From assembly GCA_018304465.1 (NCBI GenBank), contig JAGVWC010000010.1, forward strand, positions 160,001 to 224,000: a DNA stretch of 64,000 bases, given 5' to 3'. The number at the start of each line of letters is the position of its first letter. Positions within the stretch are counted from its first letter, which is position 1. The notes beneath the pieces were generated by a model that worked only from the letters and a program-made list of their open reading frames with translations, did not search any database and was not told the DNA's origin. Below, in pieces: positions 39,288 through 56,995 of the stretch. Source of the stretch: Candidatus Iainarchaeum sp. (GTDB lineage Archaea; Iainarchaeota; Iainarchaeia; Iainarchaeales; JAGVWC01). The translations under genes and the position numbers were made by a program.

Positions 39288-40337
39288 ATGAAACCACGGG
39301 TAAAAAAAGAAGCGGTTGCCTACGCAAAACGAATCGAAGAAAAATACGGAGTCACCACCAGCGTCATCGCCCAAACCAACCAAGGCCTTCCGTGGGTCAC
39401 CTCGGGTGACGGAATCACGATTTTTGTCATCGAACCCCGAAAAGACAATTTTAAAATCCTCAAACAACTCGCCGCTGATCTGGAAGTATCCTCCTTTGGC
39501 CAGCCGCGCCATTTGGTTCAGGGAATGCATCCCGTCTCCGAAATGGTTGCAATCACCCGCGAAAACCCCAGTCTCCTCCGAAGCGGCCTTGGCGCCGCCG
39601 GTTTTTTAGTCCCGTTCCTAACCCACACCGAAATATTCGGAAAGTACCAGGACGAATTCCGCCGCGCGTTCCAGACCGCCTTCGGACCCGCGCTTGTAAA
39701 CGAACTCCGCGAACGCAAAGAACGGTTAAAAAAATTCCAACAACAAAGGCTTCAACGCGTCAGAATGGCGAGGACGGCCGAACAAAAACAACTGCTGGAC
39801 CAATTTGAAGCACTCGCCCAACGCGTCCACGCCGAACAACCAACCGTATTAATCGCCCTGGACCGGTCCGGTCGACCCGTCGGAACAACGGTTCAACAAA
39901 TACTCAAAGAAGCCTACGGAGAACGCATTCCCCTGTTTTTCATCAATCCCGAAATGCTTCGGAATACAACGCTTCCAAAACAAACGCTTCGAAAACTTCT
40001 CGAAACCCAGCACCCGCACCTATGCCGACACCTTCCAGACGCCACAGTGATGATTCTCGACGATCAAATCGCCACCGGGAAAGCGGCAGGAGCCGTCGGA
40101 GAACTGCTCAACCAATTCCACCCCAAAAAAGTAAAAACAGAGGTCTTATCCGAGTATCCCAAAACCCATCCCCCCAGCTGGTGGTACCAAAAACCGTTTC
40201 TTATTCAAAGCGCGAAAGGTCGCCTGATCTCAAAACGCATCCGGGCAAATCAAAAACTCCGCCGAAAATCCGCGACTATCCGAAAAAAGTTCGGTAAAAT
40301 CGCACGCACCCTCACGATCCGTCTTCGGAAAAAATAA
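39288..40337 (+). CDS. hypothetical protein with phosphoribosyltransferase-like domain
   Basis: LIALDRSGRP and VMILDDQIATGKA (PRPP-binding-like); Arg/Lys-rich C-terminus. Confidence 0.6.
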   Translation: MKPRVKKEAVAYAKRIEEKYGVTTSVIAQTNQGLPWVTSGDGITIFVIEPRKDNFKILKQLAADLEVSSFGQPRHLVQGMHPVSEMVAITRENPSLLRSGLGAAGFLVPFLTHTEIFGKYQDEFRRAFQTAFGPALVNELRERKERLKKFQQQRLQRVRMARTAEQKQLLDQFEALAQRVHAEQPTVLIALDRSGRPVGTTVQQILKEAYGERIPLFFINPEMLRNTTLPKQTLRKLLETQHPHLCRHLPDATVMILDDQIATGKAAGAVGELLNQFHPKKVKTEVLSEYPKTHPPSWWYQKPFLIQSAKGRLISKRIRANQKLRRKSATIRKKFGKIARTLTIRLRKK

Positions 40338-40682
40338 TTACCGTTTTTGCGTCGCGTCTTCGCGCATCAGCCATTTCACGATCAAAAACACCACCAACGC
40401 GATGATTAAAAAATCGATCAAATTTCCCGCGAAGTCGCCGATGAGAAATTTCACGGGCCCGACCTGCAACACCGCCTGGCGCCACTCTCCGTTTGGGACC
40501 AACACACCCACAATCGGCATAACCACGTCGTTTACCAGCGCGGTCACGAGTTTGGTGGAGGCCGCACCGATAATAAACGCGACCGCAAGCCCGATGACCT
40601 GATATTTTTTCAAAAAGTCCAGAAACTCCCCCGAAAACCCTTTTCCGATGTTCGCCGCTGCCTTAATTTTCTCCACCTTCAA
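40338..40682 (-). CDS. mscL: large-conductance mechanosensitive channel
   Basis: EF..FL....VIGLAVAFIIG.A....V.ALV.DVVMP; IDFLIIA.VVF. Confidence 0.9.
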   Translation of the reverse strand: MKVEKIKAAANIGKGFSGEFLDFLKKYQVIGLAVAFIIGAASTKLVTALVNDVVMPIVGVLVPNGEWRQAVLQVGPVKFLIGDFAGNLIDFLIIALVVFLIVKWLMREDATQKR

Positions 40683-40722
40683 AAAAAAGCCTCCTTGATC
40701 AACCCAAACGCCAAAAAATTTT

Positions 40723-41190
40723 TTAACACACCGCGTGCTTGTTTTTTTCCAAATACCGCTGATGGTATTCTTCCGCTTTCCAGAAATCGCCCGCGGGAAG
40801 GATTTCCGTCACGATGGGTTTTGAAAAACGACCCGACTTGTTCAATGCGGCTTTCGATTCCTTCGCAATTCTTTTTTGTTCCGGCGAAAAATAAAAAATA
40901 ACGGAGCGATACTGATGCCCCACGTCAGGACCTTGGCGGTTCAATTGCGTGGGGTCATGAAGCGCCCAAAACAAATCCAGGATCTTTTGAAACGAAACGC
41001 GTTTCGGATCGAATTCCACCAGCACCGTTTCGGCGTGACCCGTGGATCCGGAACACACGTCTTCATACGACGGGTTTTTTTTCCATCCACCCGCATACCC
41101 CGACGTCGCTTCAATCACGCCGTCCAAATTACGAAATGCGGCTTCTACACCCCAAAAACAACCCGCGCCCACCAACGCTTTTTCGGCCAT
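40723..41190 (-). CDS. msrA: peptide methionine sulfoxide reductase A
   Basis: GCFWG, TGHAE, RQGPDVG.QYRS, AEEYHQ.Y. Confidence 0.96.
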   Translation of the reverse strand: MAEKALVGAGCFWGVEAAFRNLDGVIEATSGYAGGWKKNPSYEDVCSGSTGHAETVLVEFDPKRVSFQKILDLFWALHDPTQLNRQGPDVGHQYRSVIFYFSPEQKRIAKESKAALNKSGRFSKPIVTEILPAGDFWKAEEYHQRYLEKNKHAVC

Positions 41191-41233
41191 ACGAACAATA
41201 AGACGGAATATAACTTAATAATATACTGACGGT

Positions 41234-43807
41234 CTAGGCGCGATCTTTGGAATAATACCAATCCATCATTTCTTTTGACGCGTCTTCGTCGAGGTTTTCC
41301 GACCCAATGGCTTTTGCGGCCAAAAAACCGCGTTCAATCCGATCCGCGACCCATTTTTCATTTGACCGCACAAACGACCAATACTCGTCAAAATCCCGCA
41401 CAAACGAGTCGCCGGACAAAATCCGGCCTGTTGCGACATCCACCACGACGTGCTGGGCTTGACCGGATACCCACGCCGTAAACGAATCCTTCGAACGATC
41501 GTTTTTGTTTTGCACCAGAACGATTTCAACGTTTCGCACCGCCAGATTCCTTTTTTGTTCCATCTGGTTTTTGGACGCAAGTTCCGAAACCTTTTCGGAA
41601 ACTTTTCCGAACAAATCCGACGAAACAAAATCTTTTGCCGTGGACAAATTACGGGTTTCGATTCCCGTGTTCAAAAGCACAAATCCAAGGCGCGCCTGTT
41701 CGCGCATGAAATCCTCGTTCCACATCGCATCGGTTTGGCTTAAAAAATTCAGCAATCGATGCACTTTTCCCCCTTTGGATTTGATATCCGCGATTCCGAC
41801 GGCTTCAAACCCCGTTTGTTCGCGCGTTTCCGAAATCGAGACATCCATTTTTGCGGATTTTCCGGATTTTTCGTATATCCGTTTCAACATGTCCGGCGTC
41901 GCGTTTTCCACCACGTTTTCTTTTGAAACAAACGACGCGCCTTCTTCCGGCTGATCAATCGCGTTCAATAGCCACTGGTCCGACACCCGGATGAACGTCC
42001 AGAATTCCTCGAACCGGCCGATCCCCATATCCCCACGGATTTTTTTTCCGGTTCGATCGTCGACAATCGTATCGCGGCACTCGGCTTGCACCCACACCGT
42101 GAACTGGTCCGAAAAACGCTTGCCGGCATCACCCATTGAACTCTTCAGGCTTTTCACCCACACGATTTTTTGATCCAGCAACCGCAATTCTTCCAAACGG
42201 TTGATTTCATGCCGCACTTTCATGGCTTCCAACTGCGACACGTGCGAAACAAACAACGACTGCGACAACAACGGGCGCATTTCGGAATAATCGCGTTTTT
42301 CCCAGCATTCCTGAAGCTTCAAAAAAACCGTTTTCGAACGGTTAACCATTTCGGATTCGTTCCACACCGTCGAAACAGACGCCAGATACGAAAGCAACGC
42401 GGATACCTTCGCGGCCTTGGCATTGATCTTGGGTTTTGAAAGCGCGATCGTGGAGCTCCATTCGCCCAAAAAACCCGAAAACGCGTTTCGGTCGCCGGAC
42501 AAAAAACGAAAACCGCTTTTAACGATTGCCGAAAAAACCATGATGATCACGATGCCCCAGACTCCAAAGAAAAACACCAAAAAGAAACCCATCAACAACA
42601 ATTCGCCAAGCGACATGGGGCATTCGGGGATGCTGGCTTTGTTCGAAAACGCCGCGTCATTGGTGCAATAACACGAATCAACGATAATGTTCGGATTTTC
42701 GGAATCCGAAGAAACCACTTGTCCGCCGGAAATACAACTGCAAAACGGATACTCGGGCGTTGGAATCACCGACGAAGCCGTCAGAAAAGGAAGATACGAA
42801 CCGGATTTTTTTTCACAGCACGTCTTGTTTTGATCGGATTTTTTGCAGTCAAAATACGCCATATTGTCCGGTGGACCGCTAGAGCGGCTCGAACCGCCGG
42901 ACGACCCTCCGCCGCCACCCTTGTTGTGCACCGCAAAACCGTTCGCCAAAAACGTGTTCGGTTCGTTTACGCTCAAATTGTACGCGATGACGGACGCGGG
43001 AACAACATCGATTCGAGTCAGTCGCACGGGCAAAAGATCCCCGTTATCCGAAAACACGATCACTTCATCGCCCACCGCCAATGACTCGGCAACGCGATAT
43101 CCGGCCAACGTCCAGAACGGGTGTTCAGGAGTGACATCCACCCAAAAATCCCCCGCTTCCAAATGCAAAAAACGGTCGCGCACCACCCGATACACGTCCG
43201 TGACCGAGGAAGACACCAGAGAACCGTTTTCGTCAAACGAAACCACTTCATCACCGACTTTGATGTCCGCAATCGACTTCAAACCAAACGAAGTTTTCAC
43301 GGTTGTTTGACCCAAAAAACATCCGCCGCCACCGCCTTTGTTATGCACGACAAAGTGGTTCGCGACAAAAAGATGGTTTTGGGAAACCTCCAGATTAAAC
43401 GCCTTGACTTTTTTTTGATACTTTTCCACGGATTCGATTTTTTTTGAAACCAACCGATTGTTTTCAAGCATCATCACATTGTCGTCAGGAGAAAACGACC
43501 GGGCTTCGCGAAACAATCCGTTGGCGACCAAAAACGGATGCTCACCAGTCACGAGAACGGAACCCAGGCCGGTTTTAATCGAAAAAAAAGCGTCTCTTTC
43601 CACGGAAAAAACGTTTTGAACCTGCACCCATTGCGCACCGTTTTGATCGAAACCCAACACCGTGTCTCCGACCAAAAGGGATTCAATCGGAACGGGTCCT
43701 TGCGGCGTATCGATCCAAGTGCCTTCCAAAAAACACCCGCCACCGCCCCGCGAAAACGCGCTTGAAAAAAGCAGCAGGAAAAAAACCGCTGCAAAAAAAC
43801 GGCGCAT
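41234..43807 (-). CDS. exported membrane protein: two tandem Hint (BIL/intein-like) domains, Cys-rich linker, TM helix, two Tim44-like domains
   Basis: Hint1 43735..43340 (C...TGEHPF...VVHN), Hint2 43321..42923 (C...TPEHPF...AVHN); Tim44-like EEFWTF.R and DEYWSF.R repeats. Confidence 0.85.
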   Translation of the reverse strand: MRRFFAAVFFLLLFSSAFSRGGGGCFLEGTWIDTPQGPVPIESLLVGDTVLGFDQNGAQWVQVQNVFSVERDAFFSIKTGLGSVLVTGEHPFLVANGLFREARSFSPDDNVMMLENNRLVSKKIESVEKYQKKVKAFNLEVSQNHLFVANHFVVHNKGGGGGCFLGQTTVKTSFGLKSIADIKVGDEVVSFDENGSLVSSSVTDVYRVVRDRFLHLEAGDFWVDVTPEHPFWTLAGYRVAESLAVGDEVIVFSDNGDLLPVRLTRIDVVPASVIAYNLSVNEPNTFLANGFAVHNKGGGGGSSGGSSRSSGPPDNMAYFDCKKSDQNKTCCEKKSGSYLPFLTASSVIPTPEYPFCSCISGGQVVSSDSENPNIIVDSCYCTNDAAFSNKASIPECPMSLGELLLMGFFLVFFFGVWGIVIIMVFSAIVKSGFRFLSGDRNAFSGFLGEWSSTIALSKPKINAKAAKVSALLSYLASVSTVWNESEMVNRSKTVFLKLQECWEKRDYSEMRPLLSQSLFVSHVSQLEAMKVRHEINRLEELRLLDQKIVWVKSLKSSMGDAGKRFSDQFTVWVQAECRDTIVDDRTGKKIRGDMGIGRFEEFWTFIRVSDQWLLNAIDQPEEGASFVSKENVVENATPDMLKRIYEKSGKSAKMDVSISETREQTGFEAVGIADIKSKGGKVHRLLNFLSQTDAMWNEDFMREQARLGFVLLNTGIETRNLSTAKDFVSSDLFGKVSEKVSELASKNQMEQKRNLAVRNVEIVLVQNKNDRSKDSFTAWVSGQAQHVVVDVATGRILSGDSFVRDFDEYWSFVRSNEKWVADRIERGFLAAKAIGSENLDEDASKEMMDWYYSKDRA

Positions 43808-43811
43808 GTTT

Positions 43812-44075
43812 TTACCAACCGTGAATACCCGAAATAATCGCCGCCGCGATGATCAGGGCAAAACCGATTAACACGCCTTGGACAATGGCACCGTAATAAT
43901 GCGCGACCGCCATGTTACCGCGCGCGATTTCTTTTTCCTCGTCTATTTTCGGGGAAAGCGCGTACAAAATCCGCGGTACCACGAGCACCGCAAGCAACAA
44001 CAACAAAAGCCCCAGCACGCCGCCAAGCAACGTGTAAACGACCGCACCGATCACGTCATCAATCAGAATTGGCAT
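43812..44075 (-). CDS. DUF350-family membrane protein
   Basis: P.IDEEKEIARGN.AVA, then a TM helix; 4 nt upstream of the Hint gene. Confidence 0.75.
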   Translation of the reverse strand: MPILIDDVIGAVVYTLLGGVLGLLLLLLAVLVVPRILYALSPKIDEEKEIARGNMAVAHYYGAIVQGVLIGFALIIAAAIISGIHGW

Positions 44076-44152
44076 TCAAACCCCCCTTTTTTTGGGAAAA
44101 AATCCCGAAAGAAAATAGAACAAAACCACAATATAAAGATGGCGGTTACACT

Positions 44153-44572
44153 TCAGCCGGGTTTTGAGACAGGAATTTTTTTGCGAAAATCCAAAGAAAC
44201 CGAATTGATGCAAAACCGCTTTCCCGTGTCCGTGGGACCGTCGTCAAACAAATGCCCCAAATGCCCTCCGCAATTCCGGCACACGACTTCAATCCGATTC
44301 ATGCCCAGGCTTTTGTCTTCCTTTAACTCCACGTTTCCTTCGTTTGCGATCCGGTCAAAACTCGGCCAACCGCAATTCGAATCGAATTTGGCGTCCGACG
44401 AAAACAAATCCAGTCCGCACGCCGCGCACACGTACATCCCCGTTTCCTTGTTTTTGAGCCACTTGCCCGTGAACGGAATCTCCGTTCCTTTTTCGAACAA
44501 CACGCGAAACTGTTCCGCTGAAAGCGATTTAGAGACTTTTTGGGATCGAATCACACCAAAAATTCCAAACAT
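44153..44572 (-). CDS. msrB: peptide methionine sulfoxide reductase B
   Basis: GTE.PFTG, CAAC, KFDS.CGWPSF, C..CGGHLGH.F.DGP...G.RFCINS. Confidence 0.96.
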   Translation of the reverse strand: MFGIFGVIRSQKVSKSLSAEQFRVLFEKGTEIPFTGKWLKNKETGMYVCAACGLDLFSSDAKFDSNCGWPSFDRIANEGNVELKEDKSLGMNRIEVVCRNCGGHLGHLFDDGPTDTGKRFCINSVSLDFRKKIPVSKPG

Positions 44573-54122: not shown

Positions 54123-55619
54123 ATGAAACCAACCAAAAACGATTTTTCCCTTGAACTAGCCGCATACTTGTCCGAAAAAGACTTTGTCTACGGACCCGAA
54201 CCCGAATTATACGGCGGCATCGCGGGATTTTATACCTACGGACCGCTTGGAAAACGATTGAAAAACAACATTGAAACCGTCATTCGCAAAGCGTTTAACG
54301 TCAACGGTTTTTTTGAAATCGAATACCCCTTAATTGCGCCCGCCGCGGTGTGGAAAGCCTCGGGTCATTTGGCCAATTTTTCGGACCCGACCATCGAATG
54401 CTCCAAATGCAACTCCAGTTTTCGCGCGGACAAACTCGTCGAAGAAGCCACGGGAACCAGCGACGCGGGCCACTTGACCGACGAACAACTCGTCAACCAG
54501 ATCCGCGAACACGACCTCAAATGCTTAAACTGCAAAGGACGCTTTAACCTCGAAATCAAACGATACTCCTTGATGCTCAAAACCACGATCGGATCCGACA
54601 TCGAAGCGTATAACCGACCCGAAACCGCGACCACGACCTACTTGCCGTTCAAACATTACCTGAATTTTTTCCGAAACCGTTTGCCCTTCACGGTGTTCCA
54701 AATCGGAAAAGCGTTTCGAAACGAAATTTCTCCGCGCCAACACTTGCTTCGCATGCGCGAATTCACCCAAGCCGAAAGCCAATTCTTTATCGCGCCCGAA
54801 TCCAAACACACGTGGGAAAAATTCTCCAAAATCGAAAACGAAACACTACCGTTTTGGACCGAAGACGCCCAAAAAAAAGGTCAACCCCTTCAAATAATCA
54901 AACTCAAAGACGCGTTGGCCAAAAAAATCCTCAAAAACAAGGCCTACGCGTGGAACCTGTGGTTATCGTATCACATTTTCACGGAAATGGGAATACCCGT
55001 CCAAAAAATCCGGTTACGCCAGCATTATTCGGATGAACGCGCGTTTTACTCCGACGACACCTGGGACCTGGAAGTCGAACTCAACGCGTTTGGCTGGACC
55101 GAACTTGCCGGAATATCCGACCGAACCGATTACGACCTCAAACAACACGCCAAACACTCCAACCAAAAACTCGTGGCACGCTCGCCTGAAAACGTGGAAT
55201 TCGTTCCGCACGTCATCGAAATCGCGTTCGGAGTCGACCGACCCGTATTCGCGTTATGCGACTTGTTTTATTCCAAACGCGAACAAGACGAAAAAAGAAC
55301 CATTCTCGCGTTTCCACCCAAAATGGCTCCGATTCAAGTCGCGGTTTTTCCCCTGGTGAAGAAAGACGGTTTGGATGACAAAGCCGAACAACTCTACCGA
55401 TCGCTTGAAAACCAGTTCCTATGCTATTTTGATGATTCCGGAAGCATCGGAAAACGATACTCCCGCATGGACGCCGTTGGAACCCCGTACTGCATTACCA
55501 TCGACTACGATTCCATGCAACACCAGGACGTTACGGTCCGCGAACGCGATTCCATGAAACAAGAACGCGTCAAACTATCCGAACTCGAAAAATACTTATT
55601 TCAAAGGCTGCAAAAATGA
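54123..55619 (+). CDS. glyS: glycine--tRNA ligase (archaeal/eukaryal alpha2 type)
   Basis: YGPLG, WKASGH..F.DP, RPETA, FRNEISPRQ..LRMREF.QAE, GSIGKRY.R.D..GTP. Confidence 0.96.
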   Translation: MKPTKNDFSLELAAYLSEKDFVYGPEPELYGGIAGFYTYGPLGKRLKNNIETVIRKAFNVNGFFEIEYPLIAPAAVWKASGHLANFSDPTIECSKCNSSFRADKLVEEATGTSDAGHLTDEQLVNQIREHDLKCLNCKGRFNLEIKRYSLMLKTTIGSDIEAYNRPETATTTYLPFKHYLNFFRNRLPFTVFQIGKAFRNEISPRQHLLRMREFTQAESQFFIAPESKHTWEKFSKIENETLPFWTEDAQKKGQPLQIIKLKDALAKKILKNKAYAWNLWLSYHIFTEMGIPVQKIRLRQHYSDERAFYSDDTWDLEVELNAFGWTELAGISDRTDYDLKQHAKHSNQKLVARSPENVEFVPHVIEIAFGVDRPVFALCDLFYSKREQDEKRTILAFPPKMAPIQVAVFPLVKKDGLDDKAEQLYRSLENQFLCYFDDSGSIGKRYSRMDAVGTPYCITIDYDSMQHQDVTVRERDSMKQERVKLSELEKYLFQRLQK

Positions 55620-56995
55620 CGGACTTTTTAGAACTGAGAAAAAAACTCCTCGAACGCACCAAAAAACAAGTGCAAATCGAATTCGGAGAAAACGAAATCC
55701 ACTTGATCCGCGCCAGCAACGCGTTATCCGATCTGGAAGCCGTATACAACCTGCTGTACGAACACACCAAAGAATGGTATCACTATCACTTTCCCGAACT
55801 CGAAGGCCTTTTGGACGATCCTGCGTTGTACCTAAAACTCGTGTACGAACTCGGTGAACGATCGAAAATGACCGACGACGCGGTCGCCAAAATCGAAACC
55901 GACATTGAAAAAGCCAAAACCATCGCCCAAAAAGCGGTTTTTTCCATCGGAGCCGACATTCCCGACGAAACACTCGCCGAAATCCGGCTCATCGCGCTCA
56001 ACGCATTAAATATCAAACAAGAAATGGACGCATTGGAAAAACTCCTTGAAAAACAACTCAAACAAATCGCCCCCAACTTCTCGATCATCGCCGGCACCCA
56101 AATCGCGGGCCGCATGATCAGCCACACCGGAAGCATCCAAAAACTCGCGATGCTACCCGCGTCCTCCATTCAAGTGCTTGGCGCCGAAAAAGCCTTGTTT
56201 CGATTCTTAAAAAACCGAAAAAACCTTCCGCCCAAACACGGTTACTTGTTCGCCCACGGATTCGTCCGACAATTACCCGCCGAAAAACGCGGTCGCATGG
56301 CGCGCACGCTTGCAAGCAAACTCTCGATCGCGATTCGAACCGATTACTACAACAAAAACGAAAACGTCGCCGGAAAAATCCAAGAACAACTCGCTCGCCG
56401 CGTCGAAGAACTCAAAAACGCGAAAACCAAAAACAAACCCATCCGAAAATTCGACGCGCCACGACCAATGTTCCAGCGACCCGAACGATTCCAACCCCGC
56501 GATTCGAATGAACGAAAAGAAAGATACCCACCCAAAAGCGATTATCGTCCCAAAGGCAATTATCCGCCGAAAAGAGACTACAAACCCCGCGAAAATTACA
56601 GACCCGCAGGCGAATACAAACCCAGAGACAATTTCACCCCAAACACCGATTACAAACCCCGCGGAAATTTTTCACCCAACACGGATTACAAACCCAAAGG
56701 AGACTACAAACCCAAAAGCGACTACAAACCGCGGAACAAACCATTCCAAAAAGACCGATTTCGACCCCAACGCTCGGGTCGACGCGAAGAAAAACGGGAT
56801 TTCGGAACACAACCCGTCGAAAAAAAGTTTTCCTCGTTTACCGTAGAAAAATCCACGTTCCAACCCTTGCCACCCGGACAAGCCCCCAAATTCCGAAAAT
56901 TTAACCAGCCGCGCAGCAAATTCTCAACCCGAAACCGATCCGAAGCCGGGTCGCAAGGACGCCCCAACAAATTCAGAAAGAGAAAATCCAGATGA
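55616..56995 (+). CDS. nop5: Nop5/Nop56/58 box C/D RNP protein with long repetitive C-terminal tail
   Basis: EWY..HFPEL, APN, PASSIQVLGAEKALF, PKHG, R.LA.K..IA.R.D. Confidence 0.92.
   Translation: MTDFLELRKKLLERTKKQVQIEFGENEIHLIRASNALSDLEAVYNLLYEHTKEWYHYHFPELEGLLDDPALYLKLVYELGERSKMTDDAVAKIETDIEKAKTIAQKAVFSIGADIPDETLAEIRLIALNALNIKQEMDALEKLLEKQLKQIAPNFSIIAGTQIAGRMISHTGSIQKLAMLPASSIQVLGAEKALFRFLKNRKNLPPKHGYLFAHGFVRQLPAEKRGRMARTLASKLSIAIRTDYYNKNENVAGKIQEQLARRVEELKNAKTKNKPIRKFDAPRPMFQRPERFQPRDSNERKERYPPKSDYRPKGNYPPKRDYKPRENYRPAGEYKPRDNFTPNTDYKPRGNFSPNTDYKPKGDYKPKSDYKPRNKPFQKDRFRPQRSGRREEKRDFGTQPVEKKFSSFTVEKSTFQPLPPGQAPKFRKFNQPRSKFSTRNRSEAGSQGRPNKFRKRKSR
56521..56733 (+). repeat. about 18-nt degenerate tandem repeats encoding [DNE]-[YF]-x-P-x-x hexapeptides in the Nop5 tail
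   Basis: RYPPKS DYRPKG NYPPKR DYKPRE NYRPAG EYKPRD NFTPNT DYKPRG NFSPNT DYKPKG DYKPKS DYKPR. Confidence 0.8.

Follow-up and report, generated by a model that had tools for sequence, protein, structure and literature searches.

According to PMC4031507, bacterial intein-like (BIL) domains of type A retain the C-terminal His-Asn pair, are missing the +1 nucleophile, and mostly cleave; where they ligate, the amine freed by Asn cyclization attacks the N-terminal thioester. Products of N- and C-terminal cleavage predominate among BILs (PMC4031507, PMC7664689), and no cellular role is assigned to the bacterial ones in the available portions of these two papers. BUBL BIL2 of Tetrahymena thermophila links a Lys epsilon-amine to the C terminus of its N-extein through an isopeptide bond, with no need for ATP (PMC8616854, section 2.4), and the same source describes conjugation of this N-extein to lysines of other proteins. 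Here, we describe a gene pair in a 64,000-nucleotide (nt) stretch of Candidatus Iainarchaeum sp. contig JAGVWC010000010.1 (the window, by which we mean this whole stretch). The pair encodes a small DUF350 membrane protein and a predicted exported protein, termed Hint-Tim44, with two BIL-type Hint domains in a Gly-rich N-terminal tail ahead of a transmembrane helix and two Tim44-like domains. What appears to be new is the combination of BIL domains carrying an invariant Lys at +1 with their placement in conserved, putatively exported arrays on a Tim44/DUF350 module. In the reading that we favor, and that we hold with about even confidence, these exported Hints would excise themselves and the amine of the invariant Lys would capture the Gly thioester.

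When a profile of the Hint units was compared with the PDB, the type A BIL of Clostridium thermocellum (2lwy) was the best relative (88.6 bits, E = 5e-24). BUBL BIL2 (6tmm, 6y75) was second best at 58 bits, and all solved chains other than 2lwy scored 58.3 bits or less, with canonical mini-inteins at 57 or below and Hedgehog at about 36. The structural comparison with 2lwy gave TM-scores of 0.82/0.87 and a root-mean-square deviation of 1.8. Modeled with AlphaFold2 from 121 aligned units, Hint1 and its flanks adopt the HINT fold (pLDDT 91.7, pTM 0.86), and Foldseek matched this model to mini-inteins and BILs at query-normalized TM-scores of 0.80 to 0.83; with the full-length model, two BILs ranked first, BUBL BIL2 at the top. 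The assignment to the A-type BIL pattern made in the original prediction is borne out by 2lwy being the closest relative and by the shared Cys1, TxxH, and His-Asn, the absence of Cys/Ser/Thr at +1, the lack of an endonuclease, and a length of about 135 amino acids (aa) in 2lwy. Judged by sequence and modeled fold, the window Hints are thus type A BIL-like, with the HINT fold, Cys1, TxxH, and HN and without a +1 Cys/Ser/Thr. Unlike type A BILs, however, the units of the Hint-Tim44 family have an invariant Lys(+1), Gly(-1), and Gly(+2) and occur in arrays of one to six. The arrays follow a signal peptide in a Tim44-like membrane protein whose partner is DUF350, and both archaea and bacteria encode the family.

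A hidden Markov model (HMM) of the Hint core was built without the three N-terminal and four C-terminal residues, so that the junctions were excluded from the search. It recovered 618 units in 207 proteins, of which 594 were complete with both flanks. Gly(-1), the terminal His-Asn, Lys(+1), and Gly(+2) were each present in 594/594. Residue 1 is Cys in 592 of these units and Ser in 2, and the Thr and His of block B are kept in 591 and 592 of them, respectively. Units are 128 to 166 aa long (median, 132), and no homing endonuclease was found in them. The conserved GGG-C and HN-KGGG flanks anticipated in the original prediction hence take the form G↓C (C or S) and HN↓KG in all 594 units, where ↓ marks a junction or cleavage site. 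The two Ser-starting units (one in P0067, with KG↓SFLPDT.., and one further unit) still have a nucleophile at this position, which would give an oxyester.

As controls, 14 Hint junctions were taken from canonical inteins of the source archaeon and its relatives and from three plasmid PT-HINT proteins. Their +1 residue is Ser in 8, Cys in 2, Thr in 2, and Ala in 2, with Lys in none; the inteins account for Ser or Cys and the plasmid proteins for Thr or Ala. Within this comparison, Lys at +1 is specific to the Hint-Tim44 family. One control, an endonuclease-sized canonical intein in a P-loop protein (..GKRGGGK↓C .. HN↓S..), is encoded in the same genome outside the window (L002, contig C15:46081-49383) and occurs at the identical site in at least seven relatives (L006, L008-L013).

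Linkers between units consist of K followed by 1 to 9 Gly; in the first 120 proteins, KGGG was counted 125 times, KG 102 times, KGG 50 times, and KGGGGG 21 times. The tail behind the last Hint begins with K-G in 120/120 homologs and with K-G-G in 118 of them, and [AGSP]-R-[GA]-GGG directly follows the hydrophobic N terminus in 113/120.

The other Hint systems differ from this family as follows. BUBL is a cytoplasmic eukaryotic system with ubiquitin-like flanking domains, whereas the exteins of Hint-Tim44 are bare oligo-Gly or K-Gn stretches that are predicted to be exported; Pfam detected no ubiquitin-like domain in the window protein. Canonical class 1 mini-inteins (Npu/Ssp DnaB, Mtu RecA) share the fold (TM-score, 0.80 to 0.83), Cys1, TxxH, and HN, but the Hint-Tim44 units have Lys rather than Cys/Ser/Thr at +1, their presence is not sporadic among close orthologs, and their host is not a conserved cytoplasmic housekeeping protein. 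Hedgehog/Hog proteins resemble the family in the Gly↓Cys-Phe cleavage site, in a match to PF01079 (36.7 bits), and in its predicted export. In contrast to them, Hint-Tim44 keeps the terminal His-Asn and has no sterol-recognition extension, with K-Gn or the next Hint following directly; the Hedgehog profile matches in the PDB end at query position 121 of 148. PT-HINT polymorphic toxins are represented by the best-scoring Hint model (64 bits), and NCBI names some family members "polymorphic toxin-type HINT domain-containing protein," yet Hint-Tim44 has a transmembrane helix and two Tim44 domains instead of a C-terminal toxin domain and is without an immunity gene. Finally, the Hint-free bacterial Tim44-like proteins (JGI "predicted lipid-binding transport protein (Tim44 family)") share the signal peptide, an A↓R[AGV]GG motif, a Gly/Ser-rich stretch, the transmembrane helix, and Tim44, but they lack Hints and are distant, and the one readable locus has no DUF350 within 3 kb upstream. 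Their N termini agree with the notion, put forward in the original prediction, that Tim44-like envelope proteins often begin with a Gly-rich segment: a signal peptide is followed by A↓RxGGG and a Gly/Ser-rich stretch.

At the locus itself, the following features were assigned.

41234..43807, minus strand: Hint-Tim44 open reading frame, 857 aa (from the list of open reading frames)
43812..44075, minus strand: DUF350 small membrane protein, 87 aa (Pfam PF03994, 33.8 bits against a cutoff of 26)
43751..43807, minus strand: predicted Sec signal peptide, residues 1-19 (MRR, hydrophobic core, ..SSAFS), read from the sequence, with the cleavage site inferred
43736..43750, minus strand: RGGGG, residues 20-24, the N-extein of Hint1, which matches the A↓RxGGG motif that Hint-free Tim44-like proteins have natively
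43340..43735, minus strand: Hint1, residues 25-156, with Cys25, Thr87..His90 (block B), and His155-Asn156; C..TGEH..VVHN (Pfam; Hint HMM, 126.1 bits; AlphaFold2)
43322..43339, minus strand: KGGGGG linker, residues 157-162, read from the sequence; Lys157 is the +1 residue of Hint1, and Gly162 the -1 residue of Hint2
42923..43321, minus strand: Hint2, residues 163-295, with Cys163, Thr226..His229, and His294-Asn295; C..TPEH..AVHN (best PT-HINT stretch, 170-297; Hint HMM, 111.2 bits)
42887..42922, minus strand: KGGGGGSSGGSS, residues 296-307, read from the sequence; a Gly/Ser tail comes after Lys296, the +1 residue of Hint2
42602..42886, minus strand: ectodomain linker with 8 Cys (321, 330, 331, 356, 358, 379, 381, 396), read from the sequence; pLDDT 45-76
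42521..42601, minus strand: transmembrane helix, residues 403-429 (hydropathy and sequence; helix over 400-437 in the model)
41954..42436, minus strand: Tim44-like domain 1, residues ~458-618 (PF04280, 2 stretches; NCBIfam stretch 460-609; pLDDT mostly >90)
41333..41794, minus strand: Tim44-like domain 2, residues ~672-825 (PF04280 best stretch, 699-815; pLDDT mostly >90)

The co-occurrence of these elements at one locus is far beyond chance. All parts of the architecture in the original prediction, from the signal peptide to the two Tim44 repeats, were recovered in place, as was the DUF350-like gene ending 4 nt upstream of the start codon: its TAA stop is separated from the ATG of the Hint-Tim44 gene by positions 43808-43811. 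In Pfam, the 857-aa protein matched Tim44 at 82.8 bits (cutoff, 29.6; 2 stretches), PT-HINT at 64.0 (cutoff, 27.7; 2 stretches), Hint_2 at 49.1, Intein_splicing at 46.6, and the Hedgehog Hint family at the score given above, all exceeding the curated cutoffs. The NCBIfam models intein_Cterm (32.8 bits; cutoff, 15.6) and intein_Nterm (28.6; cutoff, 24.5) were passed as well, while Tim44_TimA_adap (NF033779) scored 38.6 bits, under its cutoff of 80. For the Tim44 half, a phmmer search of the PDB gave no match below an E value of 0.59, and Foldseek with the full-length model returned Hint matches at all ranks up to 50. This model (AlphaFold2; pLDDT, 84.1) shows two folded Hints, two confident alpha+beta domains, and a long helix at 400-437; the Gly linkers are disordered (pLDDT <50 at 158-160), and the Cys-rich stretch is poorly defined. 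Because acidic residues precede the transmembrane helix and Lys/Arg come after it, the Hints are predicted to be located outside the membrane and the Tim44 domains inside.

The family is broad. Of 7997 candidates scored in a word-index search, 897 proteins matched at E ≤ 1e-3, and Hint-type Pfam families were combined with PF04280 in all 120 of the matches listed. The best nonself matches are 41 to 47% identical, and the best of these are named Micrarchaeota. Relatives are encoded in 176 species-representative genomes. The 80 loci that were kept, all from metagenome-assembled genomes, carry record titles that name Micrarchaeota, Planctomycetota, Verrucomicrobiota/Opitutaceae, Nitrospirota, Lentisphaerae, Kiritimatiellaeota, Myxococcota, Auribacterota, Anaerolineales, and delta proteobacteria (Syntrophales, Desulfarculales, Desulfobacteraceae). 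At the level of genomes, presence is patchy: the source genome has one copy, and none of 40 relatives from its family or order gave a full-length match, with 14 showing weak Hint-only matches. Plasmids and phages yielded no full architecture and only single-Hint matches (6 plasmid records and 1 phage record). No paper coupling Tim44 to a Hint domain or intein was found in the literature, and nothing relevant on DUF350 or on Tim44 with LemA was present among the matches listed.

DUF350 is the constant companion of this family. In each of the 72 sources that could be assessed (71 loci and the window), a same-strand DUF350 gene precedes the Hint-Tim44 gene, in accordance with the linkage that the original prediction had proposed to survey. 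The distance to the first Hint is 500 nt or less in 71 of the 72; in L055, the match ends 661 nt upstream. Archaeal and bacterial copies align at 51% mean column identity and share an invariant loop, P..IDE.KE..RGN.A.A.Y.G; three orthologs scanned against the Pfam cutoff of 26 scored 33.6 and, just below it, 25.5 and 24.9. On these grounds, the DUF350 and Hint-Tim44 genes form a conserved two-gene module of predicted membrane proteins, and its Tim44 and DUF350 parts suggest a membrane-associated function. A predicted complex of DUF350 with residues 385-640 (transmembrane helix and first Tim44 domain) scored 0.00, with the mark at 0.32, and was used neither way. As for Hint-free relatives, a locus search with P0377 gave no match, one with P0367 returned its own locus, cut after 58 codons, and one more Hint-bearing locus, and no DUF350 was found in the 3 kb upstream of Hint-free L099 (n = 1, upstream DNA only).

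Copy number is as variable as had been supposed, ranging from 1 to 6 Hints per protein with a mode of 4. A tree of 165 complete proteins requires 45 or more changes in this number; the set was selected for the N-terminal R[AG]GGG[CS] motif and is therefore uninformative on zero-Hint forms. Within the window's own clade (n = 15; support, 0.999), copy number spans 1 to 4. On the tree built from the 594 units, 558 of 583 units have their nearest neighbor in a different protein, mostly at the same array rank, and Hint1 and Hint2 of the window are only ~36% identical. Because units cluster by position, the arrays are apparently old and maintained, their units being positional orthologs across phyla.

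With the Tim44 half as the query, 116 of the 120 matches listed had Hints, the other 4 being N-truncated fragments. Hints are present in 78 of the 80 kept loci and in the window; the remaining 2 loci end at a contig end before the N terminus. In the shorter length class, strong matches of 331 to 421 aa all start in or just past the transmembrane helix. An exhaustive phmmer search with residues 440-857 against 1.84 billion representatives gave 928 matches at E ≤ 1e-3 and 58 at E ≤ 1e-30. Among 282 collected sequences that span both Tim44 domains, Hints are present in 243; a start Met is missing from 12 fragments, another 20 sequences begin with Met but have a short N terminus, and 7 are intact and Hint free. 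In these 7, which lie on long separate branches, the signal peptide leads into A↓RGG and then a Gly/Ser-rich stretch; more distant single-Tim44 proteins of ~319 aa have a signal peptide and then A↓R[AV]GGSRSSGS. Bit scores against the window protein are at most 126 for the former and ~40 to 50 for the latter. The Hint-bearing clades yielded no intact zero-Hint form. Since the Hint-free Tim44-like proteins share the A↓R..GG tail, the Hint array seems to sit in a native Gly-rich motif, and its excision would restore a similar tail. Moreover, direct repeats of Gly codons, 11 to 12 nt long, flank each window Hint, so that in-frame loss of a unit should be easy. Hints are thus retained clade-wide despite easy loss.

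How might such an array work? In the mechanism that we favor, the Hints entered a Gly-rich tail (A↓RGGGG..GGSS) that is native to a Sec-exported, single-pass double Tim44-like protein. After export, each Hint would turn the peptide linkage between Gly(-1) and Cys1 into a thioester by means of Cys1 and the block B Thr/His, and it would cut its own C terminus by cyclizing its last residue, Asn, with assistance from the penultimate His. The +1 Lys would then capture the Gly thioester with one of its amines, either the epsilon-amine, as in BUBL BIL2, or the freed alpha-amine, as in type A BILs. The Hints would be excised, the tail would be rejoined by Gly-Lys (iso)peptide bonds, and the mature Tim44 membrane protein, associated with DUF350, would keep a Lys/Gly-rich N-terminal tail. 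The alpha-amine route would accept any +1 residue, and the strictness of the Lys therefore favors a role of its side chain.

Several points weigh against this mechanism. Published BILs cleave more than they ligate, and by analogy ligation may be a minor outcome in Hint-Tim44 too. The invariance of K(+1) and G(+2) could serve the mature N terminus or Asn cyclization instead of nucleophilic attack. Splicing that merely restores a plain tail leaves the benefit of carrying 1 to 6 Hints unexplained. The 7 of 282 double-Tim44 proteins that are intact without Hints imply that the Tim44 module can work without them. In addition, P0213, P0214, P0215, P0333, P0349, and P0354 are short singletons within Hint-bearing clades that begin with Met at or just before the transmembrane helix, which would fit either a truncated gene call or a true loss.

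The rival that we rank highest is a pro-domain that only cleaves: the Hints would cut one or both junctions without rejoining anything, as a self-removing N-terminal piece that exposes a Lys-Gly N terminus and frees Hints and short K-Gn peptides into the periplasm or pseudo-periplasm. We consider this unlikely, though deserving of serious weight. Invariance extends to the catalytic residues of either cleavage, the model shows the linkers as disordered, and BILs as portrayed in PMC4031507 and PMC7664689 yield mainly cleavage products. Cleavage, however, needs no specific +1 residue and would leave the 594/594 Lys and 594/594 Gly(+2) unexplained, and a thioester that is merely hydrolyzed gives no reason for a strict Gly(-1). 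At the other extreme, the Hints might not be catalytic at all and might stay attached as extracytoplasmic binding or spacer domains, compact tandem beta-domains on a membrane stalk like many surface repeats. This we regard as very improbable: noncatalytic relics should lose Cys1, TxxH, and HN, whereas these are kept in 591 to 594 of 594 units.

Retention of the catalytic residues does not by itself argue against selfish or neutral remnants of a mini-intein, since selection against nonsplicing copies would likewise preserve them. Here, a single invasion of the Gly-rich tail would have been multiplied by unequal crossing-over without any added function, and the copies would persist only because each must keep splicing to spare the host protein. 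Excision would regenerate a tail like that of the Hint-free relatives, copy number drifts (the 45 or more changes), and the Tim44 module occurs without Hints in distant lineages. We nevertheless consider such an origin without function improbable. The Gly codon repeats and the flexible tail should tolerate deletion, yet an intact zero-Hint form was not recovered from the Hint-bearing clades; the units are positional orthologs kept across phyla; and DUF350 accompanies the Hint-bearing genes in 72/72 cases, whereas it is absent from the DNA upstream of the single Hint-free locus. The preference of the original prediction for a repeating functional unit over a parasitic intein is accordingly favored by clade-wide retention, positional orthology, and the lack of a sporadic pattern. 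About as doubtful, in our estimation, is ATP-independent ligation or cross-linking in trans, a function proposed in the original prediction, in which amines of protein copies, of envelope or S-layer proteins, or of lipids would capture the oligo-Gly thioesters. In its favor, BUBL BIL2, a published precedent not named in the original prediction and the second-best solved relative by sequence, conjugates to lysines of other proteins in the account of PMC8616854; the Gly-ending N-exteins resemble the C terminus of ubiquitin; and more Hints would mean more reactive ends, which fits the variable copy number. But Hint1 would have only RGGGG to transfer once the signal peptide is removed, archaea and diderm bacteria have unrelated envelopes so that a common external acceptor is unlikely, and an invariant Lys in cis at the active site is the more economical acceptor. 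We accordingly rank capture in cis by the +1 Lys above transfer to the S-layer, a host, or other amines.

Conceivably, though we would not count on it, the array is a prokaryotic, extracytoplasmic, ATP-independent ligation module in which the +1 Lys epsilon-amine captures the oligo-Gly thioester to give isopeptide-branched K-Gn chains or cross-linked neighboring copies at the external surface of a membrane complex of DUF350 and Tim44. If so, it would be a bacterial and archaeal counterpart of BUBL conjugation in which Hint copy number sets the number of branches, and Lys would be a splice-junction nucleophile outside the intein classes described in the available text of PMC4031507, PMC7664689, and PMC8616854.

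The family offers a defined and widespread system in which to look for a role of BILs, with the Hints obligate in a two-gene membrane module and the junction residues fixed. The invariant Lys occupies the very place where inteins need their nucleophile. This raises the questions of whether Lys can act as the nucleophile at a splicing junction and whether prokaryotes use Hint thioesters for ATP-free ligation beyond the membrane. Should the units ligate, the compact Gly↓Cys..HN↓Lys-Gly unit would be a candidate tool for protein engineering. The finding also gives a starting point for studying what prokaryotic Tim44-like and DUF350 proteins do.

The 8-Cys linker noted in the original prediction is present in the window protein, but it does not extend to the family: a similar pattern of 7 to 8 Cys occurs in 14 of the 20 closest proteins and is rare elsewhere, where the linker is short (median, 23 aa), with any Cys in 11 of 165 other proteins. 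It is thus a clade-specific insert and not a feature of the whole family. In P0081 and P0082, which have four Hints (one is named Aenigmarchaeota by NCBI), a Cys-free insert of ~210 aa between the last Hint and the transmembrane helix replaces the 8-Cys module, so that different ectodomains can be accommodated between the array and the membrane.

Other neighbors do not share the constancy of DUF350. LemA (PF04011, 196 to 204 bits) precedes DUF350 in 38 of 66 loci, mostly deltaproteobacterial (delta proteobacterium, Syntrophales, Desulfarculales), and with this frequency and its lack of adjacency in the window it is ruled out as a universal partner. The only LemA of the source genome (212.5 bits) is encoded elsewhere (L094, contig C13:9539-12985), where it immediately precedes a same-strand gene for an M48 (HtpX-like) peptidase. 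In four verrucomicrobial loci (L028, L073, L086, and L090), a conserved multipass membrane protein of ~185 aa is encoded directly downstream of the Hint-Tim44 gene; the L028 copy has no Pfam match.

In the window, msrB, DUF350, Hint-Tim44, msrA, and mscL lie on one strand (40338-44572, minus strand) with gaps of 4 to 77 nt. The Msr genes flank the module here, yet no Msr cluster recurs among the neighbors of 76 loci, and this linkage is dismissed as local. Next to this gene cluster, 39288-40337 on the plus strand encodes a 349-aa protein with a phosphoribosyltransferase domain (41.1 bits) and a subthreshold match to a StiP tellurite resistance-like protease (24.0 against 28.7). A Nop5/56-type protein is encoded at 55616-56995, which, along with the 1.25-Mb assembly and the Micrarchaeota names of the best matches, marks the genome as archaeal. 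The strands of the whole window (1-64000) are strongly and uniformly asymmetric: of 32 bins of 2 kb, 31 have a negative GC skew, with a minimum of -0.27, and 30 have a positive AT skew.

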